Shown piece by piece: positions 48,841 through 62,882 of a stretch of DNA of 64,000 bases. Made by a program: the position numbers and the translations under genes. The notes under the pieces are model-generated. The model ran no database searches. It saw only the letters and a list, made by a program, of their open reading frames with translations, and was not told where the DNA came from. Numbering within the stretch: the stretch's first letter is position 1; every line of letters begins with the position of its first letter. Origin of the DNA: a virus (taxonomy: Duplodnaviria > Caudoviricetes); the IMG/VR virus record IMGVR_UViG_3300032295_002421, positions 1 to 64,000 of that record; one strand, given 5' to 3'.

Positions 48841-48869
48841 AGCCCTCGGCAAGTGCCAGGGCTTTTTTT
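48841..48869. terminator. Terminator at convergence of the + and - gene blocks
   Basis: AGCCCT-C-GGC-AAGT-GCC-AGGGCT followed by a T-run. Confidence 0.8.
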
Positions 48870-49323
48870 ATTCTACATCCTTTCTATAGAACCTACCTTG
48901 GATATTATCGTTATATGAATCTATATGAAGAACTTTGTAGTGCATTTGCCACCAAACTTCGTAATAAGTCAATTGTTTCTTAGAGTAACATAATTGTAAG
49001 ATCTCTCTAGCAAACATGTCGTCTCCTATTTCTTTTCTTTCTTGATTAAGAAGCTTATTACTTCCATGGTATGATAACCAATCGGACTCTTTAACTATCT
49101 TCCTCTTGCGTGGGACGCGCCCAGGTTTGTCCCATTCCGCGATCTCCTTTTTGGTTAATGCTTTATTGGTATTATTGAAAAGAACCTTTCTACCTATATA
49201 GAATTTGCCATTAACTAGATTGACAATCTTATATATAAAGCCAACAGTATTGGATGGAAAGTCTTCTATTGAATTAAACTCTCTAGTAACTCCTAGAGGA
49301 TCAAAATATAACCATTTTCTCAT
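48868..49323 (-). CDS. GIY-YIG nuclease (T4 endonuclease II-like)
   Basis: GFIYKI-N-NGKFYIGRK...DW-Y-GS...F-REIL...E. Confidence 0.85.
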   Translation of the reverse strand: MRKWLYFDPLGVTREFNSIEDFPSNTVGFIYKIVNLVNGKFYIGRKVLFNNTNKALTKKEIAEWDKPGRVPRKRKIVKESDWLSYHGSNKLLNQERKEIGDDMFAREILQLCYSKKQLTYYEVWWQMHYKVLHIDSYNDNIQGRFYRKDVE

Positions 49324-49333
49324 ACTTTATTTT

Positions 49334-49723
49334 TTAGCTATCCCACCTTACAATAAAAGTCATATCTGTATTTGGTGGTATTGGATATGGTCTAGACAAT
49401 TTTCCTACTACTAATAATTCATCTTGATCATTATATAATCCTATTGTAGTTACATAAGGATGAAAATCTGAACCTGTTATTGCATCTATATATGAACCTG
49501 AAGTTCCTGCTTTTGTAGCACTAAGATTTTGTGTATAATTAAAATCATTTTCTTTTACTTTACACCTAACTTCATTCTGATATATAGTTATTTCTGATTG
49601 CAAAGACATTGTAAATGGGGAATACGAAATGAGCTCAGTATCTGTAATAAGATAGTTATTTTCATCTTCTGTTATAAGAAATAATGAATCTTCTGCCGTT
49701 AAAAAAGTAACTACTGCTGACAT
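49334..49723 (-). CDS. C-terminal half of a baseplate/tail-collar-like virion protein
   Basis: TIYQNEVRCKVKENDFNYTQN...TTIGLYNDQDELLVVGKLSRP aligns with the C-terminus of 53388..54419. Confidence 0.75.
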   Translation of the reverse strand: MSAVVTFLTAEDSLFLITEDENNYLITDTELISYSPFTMSLQSEITIYQNEVRCKVKENDFNYTQNLSATKAGTSGSYIDAITGSDFHPYVTTIGLYNDQDELLVVGKLSRPYPIPPNTDMTFIVRWDS

Positions 49724-49725
49724 AC

Positions 49726-50337
49726 CTATAAATATTCAGATTTTATTTCTTCCCACAAAAATTTTGTTACCTCTTTATTATAGTTATCTTGATAAAAATA
49801 TGGTCCATTTTTTGGAGTTAAATAAACCCTTTCTTTACTTTCCATAGTTATTGCTATATCACAAAACTGATTAGTTGATAAAGAATCTATTAAAAATTTC
49901 ATCATTAATTTTGCTGATTTAATATTAGGTATTAAACAAGGAGTTAATGATAGCATATAGTAAACTCTGTAAAAATCATTATTAAAATCTTTTATCTCCA
50001 TATTTGGTTTTATCCCTCCACAATTATATAAACTACCTCCTAAAAAAATAAAATCACATTCATCTGGTATATTAATACTTTCTGGTAGCGGTCTTATTAA
50101 TTCCATATCATCATCTATTGATATAAAAGGAAATTTATTTTTTTCTATTGCATCACATATTAATTTTATTTGTCCAAAAGAAATTCTATCTTGTCTTAGA
50201 TCTAGTTTTATGTCATTAGATATTCTATAATACTCTAAATTTAAATTATTAAATAAGGCTTCTATTTTATTTCTTCTATCCGTATATCCTTCATAATTTA
50301 AGTAATAAAATGGTATATCAATTAATTTTACATCCAT
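49726..50337 (-). CDS. GT25-like glycosyltransferase
   Basis: FYYLN...DRR, SFGQIKL, ISIDDD, DFIFLG, MLS-C. Confidence 0.7.
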   Translation of the reverse strand: MDVKLIDIPFYYLNYEGYTDRRNKIEALFNNLNLEYYRISNDIKLDLRQDRISFGQIKLICDAIEKNKFPFISIDDDMELIRPLPESINIPDECDFIFLGGSLYNCGGIKPNMEIKDFNNDFYRVYYMLSLTPCLIPNIKSAKLMMKFLIDSLSTNQFCDIAITMESKERVYLTPKNGPYFYQDNYNKEVTKFLWEEIKSEYL

Positions 50338-51083
50338 AGTATAGTATTATTAGATATATTAAATATTTGGTTTTTATTTTCTAATAAAACTTTTTTATGA
50401 TTTTCTATATCTAGTAAAGGATTTCTAGTTTCTCCTAACCCTCCCTTATCGCTTATATCAAACATAAAGTTTTCACATTTAACAGTATGAGGAGGATTAA
50501 AATGAAAATAAGCATTTATATAACTTTCATCATTTACACCGGGTTCGTATGGTATTTTTTTATCTTCTATTTGCCAATCTCTTAACGTTTTACAAAAATT
50601 TATAACCACATCTTTTTTTCCGCCAAAAAAAGCTCCGTAATGGTATGTGTAAGGAAGTGGACTGTCTTCTGGTACATATGCCTTAGAGTCTTTAAATCTA
50701 TCAAACCCCTTTCCTCCAGATAAAAAAGATCTATTTCCATAATGCTCTCCGCCTACAAGATCTCCTAAAAACCAATTTTCCGTAAAATCTTTAGATACAT
50801 TAGTATCTGCATCAAAATAATATAAATAATCGCAATCTATTTCCTCTAATAAAATAATATTTTTAAATTTTGAATTTGTTCCATCAACCCAATTACTATG
50901 CATTTCTTGATAAAACTTTACATTTATTTCAGATGGTAGATATGGTTTAGGATCTGTATCAGAAAAAAAGTAAAATTCTATATTTAAATTACCTTTATAA
51001 TGATGAATAAATTTTTTTATAAATCTAATTCCAAGTAAAAAATAAGCATTAGTAGCTATTAAAACTATTCCTATTTTTTTCAT
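50328..51083 (-). CDS. GT6 family (ABO/alpha-1,3-Gal/GalNAc transferase-like) glycosyltransferase
   Basis: IGIVLIATNAY, YFFSD, YYFDAD, YHYGAFFGG, NDESYINAYF. Confidence 0.85.
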   Translation of the reverse strand: MKKIGIVLIATNAYFLLGIRFIKKFIHHYKGNLNIEFYFFSDTDPKPYLPSEINVKFYQEMHSNWVDGTNSKFKNIILLEEIDCDYLYYFDADTNVSKDFTENWFLGDLVGGEHYGNRSFLSGGKGFDRFKDSKAYVPEDSPLPYTYHYGAFFGGKKDVVINFCKTLRDWQIEDKKIPYEPGVNDESYINAYFHFNPPHTVKCENFMFDISDKGGLGETRNPLLDIENHKKVLLENKNQIFNISNNTILWM

Positions 51084-52036
51084 ATTAAAGGAGATTTTTT
51101 TTCTACTTCTTGTATTTCTTGATAGTATTTATAACTTGCTGTTCCTTCTTTTATTCTAAGATTTAAATTATATGGTACAAAATCTCTATATTGAGCTTTG
51201 TAAAATTTACCTCCGCAGGAACAAGTAACTCCAGCATTATGAAATATATTAGTTTCATTAAATCTTTCTTCTGTATCTGTACCCCAACAAAAATCTAATT
51301 CTTTTATTACTTTAGTTTCTTGACCATTTAACCAACCATTCCATAGTACTGCCCACATATCTGCACACCATATTTGGAGTTCATGATATGATTCGTTTTC
51401 TTGTTTTTTTAAATTATTTAATTGTGTAATTTGAAAATATAATTCTTCACAATCTTTTTCTACTTTTTCCCAAAATGTATAATCAATATTTTTAAGAATA
51501 TATTGAGCACCACCTGAATTAGAATTCATTAATTTAGGAATAACTGGATCCATTCCGATTATTTCACACATTTTTAAATAAACATCTTCACCTTTACCTT
51601 TTATATAATTATAATTTATGTAACTATTAGTATCACTTAAATACCAAATATTATCATTTACAAATTTATTCCAATCAACTGGTTTTGTAAAAATAATATC
51701 GCAATCATGATAAAATATAGCTTCATTAAAAAGTTCTGGGTGTTCTTTAAAATGTTGTTTTAATATATTTGGTCTTATTGAAGAAATATATTTTATTGGA
51801 TGTTTTCTAGTGTCTGGATAAAAGAAAAATCTTACTGTATCGTAATAGGTTGTTAGTTTATCCCATATTTCAATTACTTCTGGATTACTAGTTTCATCAT
51901 TAGGATTACAAGCAATAAGAATATCAATATTATTTGGATTTATACCATTTTTAATAAAGTTATTTATCATAACTTCTACTTGCCAAGCATAATAAATAAG
52001 TCTTGGTTGAACACAAATGTAACGTAAATTTTTCAT
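51080..52036 (-). CDS. Peptidyl hydroxy-amino-acid O-glycosyltransferase-like (SERGT1/GT96 or HPAT/GT95-like GT-A)
   Basis: YYAWQVEVMINNF, YISSIRP, FYHDCDIIF-KP, GGAQY, WCADMWA parallel the plant SERGT/HPAT motifs (YFDWQ, INKP, LDADMI-GP, GG, WISEMY). Confidence 0.65.
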   Translation of the reverse strand: MKNLRYICVQPRLIYYAWQVEVMINNFIKNGINPNNIDILIACNPNDETSNPEVIEIWDKLTTYYDTVRFFFYPDTRKHPIKYISSIRPNILKQHFKEHPELFNEAIFYHDCDIIFTKPVDWNKFVNDNIWYLSDTNSYINYNYIKGKGEDVYLKMCEIIGMDPVIPKLMNSNSGGAQYILKNIDYTFWEKVEKDCEELYFQITQLNNLKKQENESYHELQIWCADMWAVLWNGWLNGQETKVIKELDFCWGTDTEERFNETNIFHNAGVTCSCGGKFYKAQYRDFVPYNLNLRIKEGTASYKYYQEIQEVEKKSPLI

Positions 52037-52065
52037 AACAATTTTATTTTTATTTTTTATTTATT

Positions 52066-53364
52066 TTAACATGGTACAGATGATACCGAAATTCCAGGAC
52101 CAGGACCATAAGAGAAAGTATTATCTCTTACACACGGCGTATTTACAGAACTAAATGTATTAACACTACCACCTGTTGAATTATTATTTTCACACAAATT
52201 ACCAGTCCAAGACGTACCTGTACCTTGAGTTTCTATTGTATAAACTGAACATGTAGGTACTTCTGTAGTTGTTGTTGTTGTTGTGCTAGTAGTTGTCGTA
52301 GTAGTGGTTGTCGTAGTAGTAGTTGTTGTAGTAGTCGTAGTTTCAGATGCAGAAGCACTTACATAATAAGATTTACCTGAAGCTGCTGTAAATGTATAAG
52401 AATTTACTGTTGCAGGTATTGATCCAGGGGTTGATATATTATTATGTAAAACTGTAGAATCAGTTAGATTTTCTATATATAATCTATAAGAACCCAATGT
52501 ACCACCTTGACTATTTTGTTGTGAATATATAGAACTTCCTGCAGAAGCTATAAAACTATTATTTTCTGTGGAGAACGATGATACTACATTTGTACCATCA
52601 TCATTTATTAATAAGTCAGAATCTACATAAGGACTAGCTAATTCTGTATTTGCCCAAAATATAGTAGCTGGTACTTCTGTTGTAGTAGTAGTCGTTGTAC
52701 TAGTTGTTGTTGTAGTCGGCGCTGCTGTAGTTGTTGTAGTTGTGGTACTAGTTGTTGTTGTACTAGTTGTTGTTGTAGTCGGCGCCGCCGTAGTTGTTGT
52801 AGTCGTTGTACTAGTTGTAGTTGTGGTCGTAGTAGAATCTATTATAGCGTTTCTATAATCTAAATTAGTTATTACAACTATACCTTGATTATATAAAATA
52901 TTTCCTACATGTATATTAAGATTATCTGTATCTATAATATTTCCATTACCATCATCTATAATATTATAAGTTAATCCTGTTAAATTAAAACTCTTTCTAC
53001 TTATATTTTCTCCAAATACAGTTCTTGGTATAGATATAACAGTTATTTCATCGCTAGATGATATTGGAAAATATCTAAAATCATTATCAAAAGTACCTTC
53101 TGCTGCTGTTGATTGAAGATTATCATTCCATGCACTAGCTGAATTATCTAAATTTCCTGTAATATAAGAATTATAATATAATTGTTGTGCTAGTTTGTAT
53201 ACAAGAAATTCAGTTTTGTTTACATTAAAAGATCCATTAATTCCTCTATTAACAGTTATTCCACTATTAATAACAGAAGAACTAAAGTAAGATGCAGAGT
53301 ATTTTAACTTTATAGGATAAGTAGAAATATCTGACCTATCAAGAGTATTTTTTGATGATCCCAT
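52066..53364 (-). CDS. Virion protein: conserved N-domain + mucin-like poly-Thr stalks + two small beta/Cys domains
   Basis: ISIPRTVFGENI-SFNL, DDGNGN, GNILYNQGIVVITN N-domain; two Thr tracts each ending in TEVP; 4-Cys C-terminal domain. Confidence 0.85.
   Translation of the reverse strand: MGSSKNTLDRSDISTYPIKLKYSASYFSSSVINSGITVNRGINGSFNVNKTEFLVYKLAQQLYYNSYITGNLDNSASAWNDNLQSTAAEGTFDNDFRYFPISSSDEITVISIPRTVFGENISRKSFNLTGLTYNIIDDGNGNIIDTDNLNIHVGNILYNQGIVVITNLDYRNAIIDSTTTTTTTSTTTTTTTAAPTTTTTSTTTTSTTTTTTTAAPTTTTTSTTTTTTTEVPATIFWANTELASPYVDSDLLINDDGTNVVSSFSTENNSFIASAGSSIYSQQNSQGGTLGSYRLYIENLTDSTVLHNNISTPGSIPATVNSYTFTAASGKSYYVSASASETTTTTTTTTTTTTTTTTTSTTTTTTTEVPTCSVYTIETQGTGTSWTGNLCENNNSTGGSVNTFSSVNTPCVRDNTFSYGPGPGISVSSVPC
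52264..52341 (-). repeat. Poly-Thr tract 2 (25 Thr + 1 Ser in 26 codons)
   Basis: Mixed ACN codons. Confidence 0.95.
52678..52836 (-). repeat. Poly-Thr tract 1 (42 Thr, 5 Ser, 2 x AAP in 53 codons)
   Basis: Two copies of TTTTTAAPTTTTTST with mixed ACN codons. Confidence 0.95.
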
Positions 53365-53387: not shown

Positions 53388-54419
53388 CTACCAATCTAAT
53401 TTAACTCTAATAAGAGCTTCTTTAGTAAAATCTTTAGTTAGTGGCTTAGACATTTTAGCCACAGCTAACAATTCATTATTATCATTATATAATCCTACTG
53501 ATGTTGGAAATGTTTGAGGACTATTAATAAAATTAGAATATATTAAATCACCAGATCCTGTAAAAAATGATGGATTAGTAGTATAATTATAATCTGAATT
53601 TTTAACTCTAACAAATAGATAGTTTGAAGAAATTGTTTCCTGAGAATTTAATTGGAAAAAAGATCCACTATTAATTGTTCTAAAAATTAGATTATTATTA
53701 AAACTAGCTGCATTTGAAGTAACCGCTGTAGAAAAAGAAGTTCCAATACCACCGTCTCCTGATGCTAAAGAAAGCGCTCTTGGATTTAAAAGTATCAATC
53801 CGATATCAGGTAAAAATAATCCATAACTACCAGAAACTGTATATCCCTTAGTAGCTCCTGTTAATGTAGGACTATTTCTTGCGGTACCATTAGATCCTGA
53901 TACTATATTATAAACTCTTCCGCCGTCTAAATACGATATGATATTTATATCATTAGAATTGTCTGTTAATTTTATAGGTCCACTACCTGCGTTTGCAAGA
54001 TATAAATTAAAAGTACCAGGAAATAAACTCTCTTTATATTTATTTCTATCAATTTGAATAGCAATTAAATCATCAGAGTCTACGTTTCCAGTTCCAAAAT
54101 TAATTGAACTTTCAGCGTCTCCGTAAATTAAATTTCTAAATTGTCCAAAAGTAATTCTAGTAGGACTATTACCTGTAACTATTGGATTTAATGGAGCAGA
54201 TCCTGATCCTGCATAATGTCCATAAGCAACAGAAAATTGAATAGAAGCTGATGGGGAAACAATAGATCCATCATAAACATCTACATAATAACTTCCTGTA
54301 GAACTAGCTGATGCTGTAAAAAAATTAGTAAGAATAGTTACATTATTACTCCATGCCGGTGCTGTTACCGAGTCAGATGATATGACAAAATCTGATGCTT
54401 CTAATCTTGTAAATGACAT
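53388..54419 (-). CDS. Virion baseplate/tail-collar-like protein (intact paralogue of the split gene)
   Basis: Contains both the N-type motifs (IQIDR-KE-GTFNL, YGLFLPDIGLI) and the C-type motif TSVGLYNDNNELLAVAKMSKP. Confidence 0.75.
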   Translation of the reverse strand: MSFTRLEASDFVISSDSVTAPAWSNNVTILTNFFTASASSTGSYYVDVYDGSIVSPSASIQFSVAYGHYAGSGSAPLNPIVTGNSPTRITFGQFRNLIYGDAESSINFGTGNVDSDDLIAIQIDRNKYKESLFPGTFNLYLANAGSGPIKLTDNSNDINIISYLDGGRVYNIVSGSNGTARNSPTLTGATKGYTVSGSYGLFLPDIGLILLNPRALSLASGDGGIGTSFSTAVTSNAASFNNNLIFRTINSGSFFQLNSQETISSNYLFVRVKNSDYNYTTNPSFFTGSGDLIYSNFINSPQTFPTSVGLYNDNNELLAVAKMSKPLTKDFTKEALIRVKLDW

Positions 54420-60609: not shown

Positions 60610-62466
60610 TTACATTGTTACTACACGACCTTGAATATCTGTATTAGGATATTTTACTTCAAATATAGAAGGATCTAAAGACGGATAAAGAACTCCGTTT
60701 AAAGTTCCTGCAGATATATCATATGAGTATCTGGAATATCCGCTAGTTAAACCAGATTTATTAACTATATTAACTTTTTTAACTGTTTGAACTCCTTCAA
60801 CAATTTCTAATATAGAATAAATGTCTCCTAATATTATAGGTTGATTTATTTGCCAATTGTTAATATTAAAAAAGTCTTGTAATACTGTTATACATCTAGC
60901 TAATACATCTTGACTAGTATAATTAGGTCTAATTATAATATCAAAATCACAACCAATATTAATTATATATGCAGGTTTTATATTAACTGCATCTGTCATC
61001 ATTCTATAATCTGATAAATATGTTTGTAAATTTTCAAGCATAGCAGGAGAAGGGTTTTCTAAGTTGTTATTAGAATTTAATCCTAAAACATAAAGACTAA
61101 CTAAAACTTGATCTTTTTGACCTATATCTCCTCTCATGTAATTATTAAAAGTAGCATCGTCTTTAGTTACATATGCCTTAGAAATTTTACCATATCTAGG
61201 ATCCATACTAAGAGTTCTTGCTAAATAATCTTCTTGAGTTACAGCTCTATATTGTGTTGGAAATTCTGCTAATATATTTAATTTTAATTCATTAACAGTA
61301 TCTCCATCGCCACCACCAGAAGCAGGATCTATATTATTAACTGCTAAGGTATTTTGATATGTAGTATTACCAGCGGAAGAAAAAGATGATATTTCAGTTA
61401 ACTGATTAGATAGTACATTTGATCTTGCGCCTCCTCCAACTAAATATTGAAATGTTATAGTAGTATTTTTAGGAGCCAATCCATAAGTTTGTGTTGTAAC
61501 AAAATTAGTAGGATCAAATGAGCTAGATAAAGTACTAAGTCCACCACCAGATAAACCAACACTTACATTATTAGGATTAGGTAAAACAGCAGTATCTGCT
61601 ACTGAATTTATTCCTGGTCCAAATTCTATTTCTAAAGTTCCTTCTGATGTAAATCTAGAAACAAATCTTCTAGAAACATACATTTTTTGAAGCATATAAG
61701 GAACTTGATTCTGGTATTGATATAATGATGGATAATTTGCCGCTGTATTTTCTACTGGTTTTAATATATAATCTTGGGCTAAATAAGGTACTTCATACCA
61801 TGTGTTTCCATCGCTATCTTTGGCATCTAAAATAGTTATTATTGAACTATCAGAAATTGATACAGTAGAAAATCTTTGAGGTGCTCCAAAAGCAAAATTT
61901 GCTGTTTTTAATTGGCCAGATAATGCTTGTCTAGTTTTTTTAAGAATATAAGAAGTAGGAATATTAGAACTATCTATTGTATATACATCTATAGTAGTTG
62001 GATCCATAGAAGATGACATAGAAAAATCTATTTTATCAGGGATATAAAAAGAAACACTAGAATCTACATTAGATCTAATTTGCATTCCTTGTCTTACTGT
62101 AAATGCATAAGAAAAATCTGGAATGGTTTCTGTTCCTATATTAATTGATGGTATTTGTTGATATATTTCTACATTTGCTATTGCCGCAGAGCTTATTTTA
62201 GGTCTATACCCTAACATATAAGCTAAAGTATATAAATTATTTTTTTGTTTTGCATATTGTAAAAAGCTCTCTTGTATTTGATTATCTAAATAAAAAGATA
62301 ATACGTCTCCAACATAAGCCGCCATATCAATAAACATAGATCCTGGACTGGCTTGTGTAAAATCGTTATATACTGTAGGGTAATACGCCCTAGCATACTC
62401 TATAAGATCTGTTTTAAATGTATTAAAATCTTTATTTATATATGATATATCAGTTTGAGTAGCCAT
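60610..62466 (-). CDS. Baseplate wedge subunit, T4 gp6 / baseplate J-like
   Basis: Y-NKDF-K-LI, DF-ASPG-MF-DM-AYVGDVLSFYLD, LGY-P, GGGD...RAVT-EDY. Confidence 0.85.
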   Translation of the reverse strand: MATQTDISYINKDFNTFKTDLIEYARAYYPTVYNDFTQASPGSMFIDMAAYVGDVLSFYLDNQIQESFLQYAKQKNNLYTLAYMLGYRPKISSAAIANVEIYQQIPSINIGTETIPDFSYAFTVRQGMQIRSNVDSSVSFYIPDKIDFSMSSSMDPTTIDVYTIDSSNIPTSYILKKTRQALSGQLKTANFAFGAPQRFSTVSISDSSIITILDAKDSDGNTWYEVPYLAQDYILKPVENTAANYPSLYQYQNQVPYMLQKMYVSRRFVSRFTSEGTLEIEFGPGINSVADTAVLPNPNNVSVGLSGGGLSTLSSSFDPTNFVTTQTYGLAPKNTTITFQYLVGGGARSNVLSNQLTEISSFSSAGNTTYQNTLAVNNIDPASGGGDGDTVNELKLNILAEFPTQYRAVTQEDYLARTLSMDPRYGKISKAYVTKDDATFNNYMRGDIGQKDQVLVSLYVLGLNSNNNLENPSPAMLENLQTYLSDYRMMTDAVNIKPAYIINIGCDFDIIIRPNYTSQDVLARCITVLQDFFNINNWQINQPIILGDIYSILEIVEGVQTVKKVNIVNKSGLTSGYSRYSYDISAGTLNGVLYPSLDPSIFEVKYPNTDIQGRVVTM

Positions 62467-62468
62467 TT

Positions 62469-62882
62469 TTACATATTTTCAATAGTTAGAATAACAGAAT
62501 CATTTTCATTTGATGTAAGCAGTCTATAACTAAATTTTATATTTATAGTACTATAATTTGGATTAGGTATTATACTTAATTGAGTTATTTCAATTTGGGG
62601 AAACTTTAATTCCATTTGAGTTCTTATAGACTGTTCAATCTCTTCAAGAGTAATTTGATCTATTTGTTCAAATAATCTAGCCCTAAGACCAGCACCAAAA
62701 GTAGGATTAAAAACCCTTTCCCCAGGATCTGTTAAAAGATAATTTATAATATTATATTTTAATTGATCTTTTGTGGTATATACAGATGAAAATACATTAT
62801 CAGCAGCAAAAGGTATTTTTACACCAATTGCTGTTGATGGTTTTAAATCTAGTGGTGATATTTGTTTTACTCCGTAGGCCAT
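62469..62882 (-). CDS. Baseplate wedge subunit, T4 gp25 / GPW-like
   Basis: N-LLT-PGERVFNP-FG-GL-LFEQ. Confidence 0.88.
   Translation of the reverse strand: MAYGVKQISPLDLKPSTAIGVKIPFAADNVFSSVYTTKDQLKYNIINYLLTDPGERVFNPTFGAGLRARLFEQIDQITLEEIEQSIRTQMELKFPQIEITQLSIIPNPNYSTINIKFSYRLLTSNENDSVILTIENM

Follow-up and report, generated by a model that had tools for sequence, protein, structure and literature searches.

The serine-rich-repeat (SRR) adhesins PsrP, Fap1 and GspB of Gram-positive bacteria carry Ser/Thr-rich repeats that are glycosylated stepwise in the cytoplasm by the products of a dedicated gene cluster (GtfA/B, GlyD/GlyE). Among phages, the mycobacteriophages Che8, Corndog and Myrna encode glycosyltransferases (GTs) that glycosylate the capsid and tail proteins of the phage itself (Freeman et al. 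2023, Cell Host Microbe 31:1216, cited in PMC12619734, PMC12363180 and PMC11256854). According to PMC12619734 and PMC12363180, these glycans lie at the C-termini of the capsid and tail-tube subunits, where they shield the particles from antibodies. The locus considered here lies in a 64,000-nt stretch of phage DNA (Duplodnaviria; Caudoviricetes; positions 1 to 64,000 of IMG/VR record IMGVR_UViG_3300032295_002421), hereafter the window, which is an AT-rich (~30% GC) portion of a 160-kb phage contig. In this locus a baseplate-module protein with long Thr tracts is followed by three GT genes, the first of which encodes a 318-aa GT-A enzyme of an unnamed family, called GT318 here. This family comes and goes with Thr runs across many unrelated phages, and we consider it probable, judging from sequence, that the phage-encoded cassette directs virion O-glycosylation primed by GT318. 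The four genes are as follows.

52066..53364, minus strand: 432-aa putative glycan acceptor, a Thr-rich protein of the baseplate module (open reading frame (ORF) and composition)
51080..52036, minus strand: 318-aa GT-A glycosyltransferase, GT318, the proposed priming enzyme (phrog_4417, AF2 (AlphaFold2) model, folds, motifs)
50328..51083, minus strand: 251-aa GT6 glycosyltransferase of the alpha-1,3-galactosyl/N-acetylgalactosaminyl (Gal/GalNAc) transferase family (PF03414, BoGT6a match)
49726..50337, minus strand: 203-aa GT25-like GT-A glycosyltransferase (AF2 model, fold matches)

The first-pass annotation had described four co-oriented ORFs, with a gap of 29 nt before a series of overlapping GT genes, and its coordinates and spacing proved exact on the minus strand: the 29-nt gap is followed by overlaps of 4 and 10 nt and, toward the end of the run, by gaps of 2 and 10 nt that lead to two further genes described below. 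A promoter and terminator scan performed no better than shuffled sequences (51 promoter-like sites versus 41.8 +/- 6.9; 1 terminator-like site versus 1.6), so that it is the spacing on which the operon reading is based. The GT cassette (window positions 50001-52000) has the lowest GC content in the window, 0.252 versus ~0.30, and a strongly negative GC skew.

How closely is GT318 tied to Thr runs? We noted the association in three kinds of comparison. First, GT318 homologues stand beside Thr runs in separate phage lineages. In Chryseobacterium phage MA9V-3 (GT 39% identity), two of the three nearest upstream genes, the adjacent one included, contain poly-Thr tracts. The GT of Lactobacillus phage iLp84, Enterococcus phage phiFL1A and Lactococcus phage CHPC971 is located in the head-tail structural module, in which a pure Thr tail terminates both the capsid protein and the major tail protein; throughout the whole genomes of these three phages, every (ACN)7 site belongs either to the C-terminal end of one of these two proteins or to a 126-aa head-module protein by the GT. 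Because neither a GT2 nor a GT1/GT4 gene was found in MA9V-3, iLp84, phiFL1A or CHPC971, the GT318 homologue is probably the only, and hence the priming, transferase of these phages. Second, related phages differ in both properties together. The capsid proteins of iLp84, which has the GT, and of iLp1308, which has no GT anywhere, are near-identical, but that of iLp84 ends in ...KVLVPTTTTTTTSK and that of iLp1308 in ...KVLIPKP, and the tail proteins of the two phages differ likewise, with a Thr tail where the GT is present and none where it is absent. A comparison of phiFL1A, which has the GT, with Javan17 and Bassarid gave the same result, the Thr tails being absent without the GT. The window phage can be paired in this way with its closest isolate, Flavobacterium phage immuto (47% amino-acid identity for one structural protein beside the cassette), which lacks both GT318 and (ACN)7 sites and in which gene 166 is unsplit.

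Third, the association holds among metagenomic relatives. Eighty IMG/VR loci with GT318 at 50-81% identity were collected, and ORFs of at least 150 aa were scored for a Thr tract. The ORF directly upstream of GT318 on the same strand had a tract in 52 of 75 loci, compared with 18 of 492 other ORFs (Fisher p 7e-40, a value that overstates independence because the loci are phylogenetically non-independent). All (ACN)8 sites of one 176-kb genome adjoin the GT. When the search was reversed, 95 poly-Thr viral loci yielded 8 with GT318 in the flank, far more than its background frequency would give. Within the clade of the window phage the synteny is shared: an N-terminal domain joined to a long Thr/Ser tract and a variable C-domain, then GT318, variable enzymes, an ORF of ~100 aa and SegE. 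The enzymes behind GT318 vary among these relatives (GT6, GT2, GT32, methyltransferases), while GT318 itself is conserved. The first-pass annotation had suggested looking for this enzyme together with poly-Thr virion genes across phage genomes, and the outcome, matched pairs included, is strongly positive.

The putative acceptor itself is divided into five parts.

52837..53364, minus strand: N-terminal domain, or N-piece (residues 1-176), homologous to the N-terminal two-thirds of immuto gp166
52678..52836, minus strand: Thr tract 1 (residues 177-229; two TAAP breaks; followed by EVP), by composition
52342..52677, minus strand: variable domain A (residues 230-341), with a single weak homologue among the fetched loci
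52264..52341, minus strand: Thr tract 2 (residues 342-367; followed by EVP), by composition
52069..52263, minus strand: distal domain B (residues 368-432, four Cys), without a homologue in the fetched loci

Tract 1 comprises 53 residues, of which 42 are Thr, 5 Ser, 4 Ala and 2 Pro (79% Thr), and tract 2 comprises 25 Thr and 1 Ser in 26 residues (96% Thr). The residue counts given for the two tracts in the first-pass annotation, both running into EVP, were thus exact, and its other statements on this protein, that the Thr codons are mixed and that a small distal domain follows each tract, also hold: the codons are ACA (31), ACT (26), ACG (7) and ACC (3), which resembles Thr codon use elsewhere in the gene, and the domains correspond to residues 230-341 and 368-432. 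Such long Thr/Ser/Pro-rich tracts in mixed synonymous codons, and thus selected at the protein level, characterise a mucin-like protein (of the Pro/Thr/Ser, or PTS, type). A match of the protein to the Pfam Mucin family was discarded as compositional only (E 7e-4, 20 bits versus a cut-off of 34.7). Within tract 1, a 63-nt unit is repeated 2.3 times at 89% identity, which indicates that part of this tract is a recent duplication. No other ORF of at least 150 aa in the window has a Thr tract. Thr tracts exist in the relatives too, where their length and sequence vary. The domains after both tracts are essentially without homologues, even among close relatives, and domain A has no Pfam or PHROG match. 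In the acceptors of three further loci (L067, L074 and L232), six to eight Thr tracts with a period of ~70-100 residues alternate with small domains, like beads on a string.

GT318 belongs to phrog_4417 (E 1e-61). Its AF2 model, built from 43 sequences, has a predicted local distance difference test score (pLDDT) of 96.8 and adopts a GT-A fold, for which the top matches are LgtC (Z 14.6; 233 residues aligned, 3.5 A) and Skp1 AgtA (Z 14.2), followed by the catalytic domain of UGGT (Z 14.0), glycogenin (Z 13.7) and GlyE (5gvv, Z 12.9); a Foldseek match was obtained at E 6.5e-8. The best folds are therefore those of retaining GT8/GT77/GT24 enzymes, several of which (glycogenin, Skp1 AgtA, GlyE, UGGT) glycosylate proteins, in the case of GlyE a serine-rich adhesin of pneumococci. 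In the 43 sequences, D111 is conserved in at least 90%, and D113 and H266 are invariant; as read from this alignment, the D-x-D motif with a downstream His is the usual metal site of retaining GT8-like GT-A enzymes. The GT-A nature proposed for the protein at first pass is therefore well founded in the model, the fold matches and the conserved metal motif. Neither GT318 nor 42 relatives matched a Pfam GT family, and GT318 matched no PDB sequence at E up to 10. The family is unannotated, every source name being 'hypothetical protein', and is large: 3807 homologues were found at E below 1e-5, in 868 clusters at 50% identity. Many homologues (representatives P0124-P0219) are fused to GT2, GT32 (Gly_transf_sug), GT6, GT25-like or Methyltransf_24 domains, and one to a radical SAM/SPASM domain. 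In representative P0212, a poly-Thr protein is joined in frame to a GT318 fragment.

The likeness of GT318 to the plant and algal enzymes SERGT and HPAT, which the first-pass annotation had proposed, could not be recovered with sequence models. The Pfam HPAT profile (PF23452) gave no significant match to GT318 or to 56 relatives (42 aquatic, 4 from isolated phages and 10 of the Gram-positive clade), the best E-value in a search at E up to 1 being 0.23, and the same profile, run at E up to 10 against the six-frame translations of five phage records, returned nothing. Among the 30 named Atlas clusters (viral) nearest by language-model distance, 22 hold PF23452 in 10-40% of their members, which we take as a lead only. 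The acceptor type of HPAT and SERGT, hydroxyproline (Hyp) or Ser in a Pro-rich repeat, was not found in the tracts, which are 79% and 96% Thr and contain 2 Pro in total.

The family labels of the other two enzymes stand. The 251-aa protein scored 39.8 bits against PF03414 (cut-off 25) and matched 77 GT6 sequences in the PDB, the best being BoGT6a (4ayj, E 7e-12) in an end-to-end alignment. Its FDAD is aligned with FNAN of BoGT6a, and its NDES, in which the catalytic Glu is kept, with HDES of BoGT6a, the column in which the E192Q mutant has HDQS. By these sequence marks, a DxD motif and the catalytic Glu, the protein is a bona fide GT6. BoGT6a is metal-independent with its NAN, whereas the DAD of the phage protein resembles the metal-dependent vertebrate type. 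Furthermore, an Ala is aligned with a Gly of BoGT6a beside the (F/S)GG motif, and the analogous difference between human GTB and GTA suggests that this Ala would favour UDP-Gal over UDP-GalNAc. The AF2 model of the 203-aa protein has a pLDDT of 92.6, and its top VIA match is an unnamed glycosyltransferase (9u7j, Z 14.7), followed by Mimivirus R655 (Z 13.7) and COLGALT1 (8zgc, Z 13.6); Foldseek also found COLGALT1 (9evk, E 9e-6). In its DDD motif at positions 75-77, D76 and D77 are invariant. The protein matched no Pfam family at E up to 0.1, the GT25 profile PF01755 included, and a profile of 27 homologues matched no PDB sequence; weak GT25 matches (E 1e-4 and 3e-3) occurred only in the extra domains of fused GT318 relatives. 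The predicted fold is GT25-like, COLGALT1 being a GT25 enzyme.

The remaining genes of the run place the cassette in a baseplate context and within a split gene.

62469-62882, minus strand: gp25-like wedge protein, upstream in the same strand run as the cassette
60610-62466, minus strand: gp6-like wedge protein, upstream in the same strand run as the cassette
53388..54419, minus strand: 343-aa homologue of immuto gp165 (47% identity to immuto_165), the C-terminus of which is paralogous to the C-piece (E 5e-12)
49334..49723, minus strand: 129-aa C-piece, a homologue of immuto gp166 over its C-terminal third
48868..49323, minus strand: SegE-type GIY-YIG homing endonuclease, the last gene of the run (Pfam PF19835, E 6.6e-26)

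The minus-strand run begins with the gp25-like and gp6-like baseplate wedge genes and ends with SegE, so the baseplate context assigned at first pass agrees with the gene order. Residues ~54-167 of the Thr-rich protein match residues 62-234 of immuto gp166 (BLASTP, E 4e-6 and 1e-3), and the C-piece matches residues 241-356 of immuto_166 at 40% identity (BLASTP, E 3e-25). Because the two pieces match successive parts of immuto gp166, we deduced that a single gene has been split relative to immuto, with the cassette lying between the pieces. The first-pass annotation had overlooked this split. The N-piece is conserved in 21 related loci (29-77% identity) and the C-piece in 23 loci, invariably behind the GT cassette, and in the relatives SegE always lies behind the C-piece. 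SegE may help the variable cassette to spread by co-conversion. In two loci of the same clade, L010 (GT 81% identical) and L025 (55%), the N-piece ends exactly where the tract starts in the window protein; GT318 is present and no tract was seen on these short contigs, so that the split and the GT are independent of the Thr-rich extension.

We propose the following mechanism. The 432-aa acceptor, which would be anchored at the baseplate periphery through its conserved N-terminal domain, carries two variable distal domains on two poly-Thr linkers. GT318 would transfer the first sugar from a nucleotide sugar to the hydroxyls of the Thr runs, in the cytoplasm and before or during assembly. Because GT318 appears to be a soluble, metal-dependent GT-A enzyme of the retaining GT8-like kind, with its D-x-D motif and conserved His, the linkage is probably alpha. 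The GT25-like protein, a predicted inverting beta-transferase, and the GT6 enzyme, of the retaining alpha-1,3-Gal/GalNAc type, may then extend and cap the glycan, in an order that we infer solely from the usual roles of the GT25 and GT6 families. The product would be a dense array of glycans that turns the tracts into stiff, extended, protease-resistant stalks presenting fast-evolving distal domains. The initiate-extend-cap order and the bottle-brush fibres of the first-pass annotation are hypothetical in the same way.

Several observations weigh against this proposal. When the tracts were masked, the 52 acceptors fell into 7 single-linkage groups, 45 of them in one group, so the statistics are inflated by shared ancestry and the 52 of 75 loci do not represent 52 independent events. 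The adjacent gene lacks a tract in 23 of the 75 loci; all 4 near-complete GT-bearing genomes without an adjacent tract encode poly-Thr proteins elsewhere. Within the fetched flank, 87 of the 95 poly-Thr viral loci have no GT318, and the tract-free loci L010 and L025 belong on the same side of the balance. GT6 enzymes typically act on fucosyl-galactose or N-acetyllactosamine, which are only hypothetical acceptors in this phage. Finally, the window contains a second sugar locus:

3465-25016, plus strand: ~20-kb sugar-nucleotide and glycan biosynthesis cluster (by gene content)

This cluster encodes two GT4-like proteins, GT2 proteins, a DegT aminotransferase, GDP-mannose 4,6-dehydratase, epimerases/reductases, two Methyltransf_24 proteins, a STELLO-like GT, an HpcH aldolase, a short-chain dehydrogenase/reductase (SDR), a dehydroquinate (DHQ)-synthase-like protein and a thiamine pyrophosphate (TPP) enzyme. 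It thus holds four or more GTs besides those of the cassette, and it represents other glycosylation business in which the cassette transferases might be involved.

In view of this second locus, which the first-pass annotation had missed, its description of a 'dedicated three-enzyme' cassette may be incomplete, although the three GTs stand. A reading in which the glycosylation is real and the cassette is not self-contained must therefore be considered: GT318 would prime, the 3.4-25 kb cluster or host enzymes would finish the glycan, and the GT6 and GT25-like enzymes might serve another one. The presence in the same window of sugar-nucleotide enzymes, methyltransferases and several GTs, together with the free variation in gene content after GT318 among relatives, speaks for such a division of labour. 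However, the cluster is inconsistent in GT318-bearing relatives: it is absent from relative G005, where no homologue of the GDP-mannose 4,6-dehydratase was found, and only distant (SDR) homologues occur in relatives G001 and G004. Immuto, too, has no homologue of this dehydratase. Moreover, the three GT genes are translationally coupled and lie only 29 nt behind the acceptor gene, and on balance we consider this division of labour unlikely.

We also regard as improbable a reading in which the Thr tracts serve purely as flexible or extended linkers and never receive glycans, and in which the transferases act on host envelope glycans or on phage DNA bases. Phage GTs are indeed best known for DNA glucosylation and serotype conversion, according to PMC12619734 (see also PMC13326640 and bioRxiv 2023.12.21.572611); L010 and L025 have GT318 without an adjacent tract; and the large sugar cluster of the same phage might serve a virion glycan, the host envelope or something else. 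Nevertheless, this reading leaves unexplained why the GT is located inside the capsid and tail modules of small siphophages, why the Thr runs of those genomes are confined to major virion proteins, and why Thr tails and GT are lost jointly in matched pairs. That the locus is mainly selfish cargo, a swap site kept in a split structural gene by SegE with the Thr extension and GTs as passengers of little use, draws on gene 166 being intact in immuto and split here, on the pieces bracketing variable cargo in ~21 loci with SegE always next to them, and on the low GC content of the cassette, yet it is very improbable, because GT318 is 66-84% identical in more than 100 relatives, compared with 47% identity to immuto for the structural neighbours, which indicates purifying selection, and because lineages that have neither the split gene nor SegE show the same pairing of enzyme and tract; as an account of cassette movement, it is compatible with GT318-primed virion glycosylation.

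If GT318 does prime virion glycosylation, the Thr run appears to be a portable acceptor tag, since elsewhere the same enzyme family is paired with capsid, tail-tube and decoration proteins whose tails consist of Thr alone. We speculate further that a bare run of ~7 or more Thr is read as a genetically encoded O-glycosylation tag, wherever it occurs (C-termini of capsid and tail-tube proteins or internal linkers of fibre proteins), by one widespread GT-A family, with which phages of Bacteroidota, Firmicutes and other hosts sugar-coat chosen virion surfaces, and that the locus described here, where swappable extension enzymes and distal domains have been added in a split gene beside a homing endonuclease, is a modular 'glyco-fibre' exchange site; the chances of this broader model seem to us evenly balanced. 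Should it be true, glycosylated virions would not be an oddity of mycobacteriophages and would be common in phages that infect dairy and gut Gram-positives or aquatic Bacteroidota, which matters in phage therapy for the stability and adsorption of phages, their adherence to mucus and their recognition by antibodies. Hundreds of sequence clusters of an unannotated family would gain a function, and O-glycosylation with one enzyme and one tag would be attractive for glycoengineering in bacteria. The pairs iLp84/iLp1308 and phiFL1A/Javan17 are culturable systems in which near-identical capsid and major tail proteins differ solely in the C-terminal Thr tail, in step with GT318.

How does this locus compare with the systems described to date? 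The SRR adhesin systems use GT8-type enzymes for extension, and one of these, GlyE, is among the structural matches of GT318 (5gvv, Z 12.9). In contrast, SRR adhesins are primed by a GT-B (GT4) pair and exported via accessory Sec, whereas the conserved first enzyme of the present locus is of the GT-A type and the glycosylated product would become part of the virion. The plant and algal enzymes HPAT (GT95) and SERGT1/SGT1 (GT96) share with GT318 the presumed transfer of the first sugar directly to a repetitive structural protein, but HPAT and SERGT1 act on Hyp or Ser-Pro acceptors, and the acceptor in the window is Thr; we know of no solved HPAT or SGT1 structure for comparison. The GT8, GT24 and GT77 enzymes (LgtC, glycogenin, Skp1 AgtA, UGGT) match GT318 along its entire chain, with Z 13.5-14.6 and 217-248 residues aligned, although identity is only 6-12% and there is no Pfam GT8 match. 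Bacterial and phage GT6 enzymes (BoGT6a of Bacteroides ovatus; phrog_3317) align end to end with the 251-aa protein. The giant viruses also use virus-encoded cytoplasmic GT-A enzymes on virion proteins (PBCV-1 A64R; Mimivirus R655/R699), as proposed here, and their enzymes are found among the fold matches (2p6w, Z 11.4 to GT318 and 11.9 to the 203-aa protein; 9crz, Z 13.7 to the 203-aa protein); PBCV-1 and Mimivirus are, however, viruses of eukaryotes, with other acceptors and glycans.

The mycobacteriophages provide the nearest precedent among phages. The first-pass annotation knew of no description of an acceptor with its initiating peptidyl-GT in one phage cassette; as a claim of novelty this was too broad, because virion glycosylation in mycobacteriophages has been published, as PMC12619734 and PMC12363180 state. 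The C-terminal glycans described there are paralleled by the Thr tails beside GT318 in iLp84, phiFL1A and CHPC971, and GTs genetically linked to structural proteins, by adjacency and by shared presence or absence, are common to both types. No Mycobacterium phage was found among 77 phage records with a GT318 homologue, which suggests that, at the sensitivity of BLAST, the GT318 family differs from the mycobacteriophage enzymes. The acceptors differ as well: that of the window is an internal mucin-like linker of a baseplate-module protein, whereas those of the mycobacteriophages are the C-termini of capsid and tail-tube proteins. Full-text literature searches returned no description of a phage GT paired with poly-Thr, nor of HPAT in connection with phages. 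Compared with the known systems, the apparent novelty lies in the enzyme family, in the use of a Thr run as an acceptor tag, in the breadth of the association over phage groups, and in a mucin-like baseplate fibre equipped with swappable extension enzymes.

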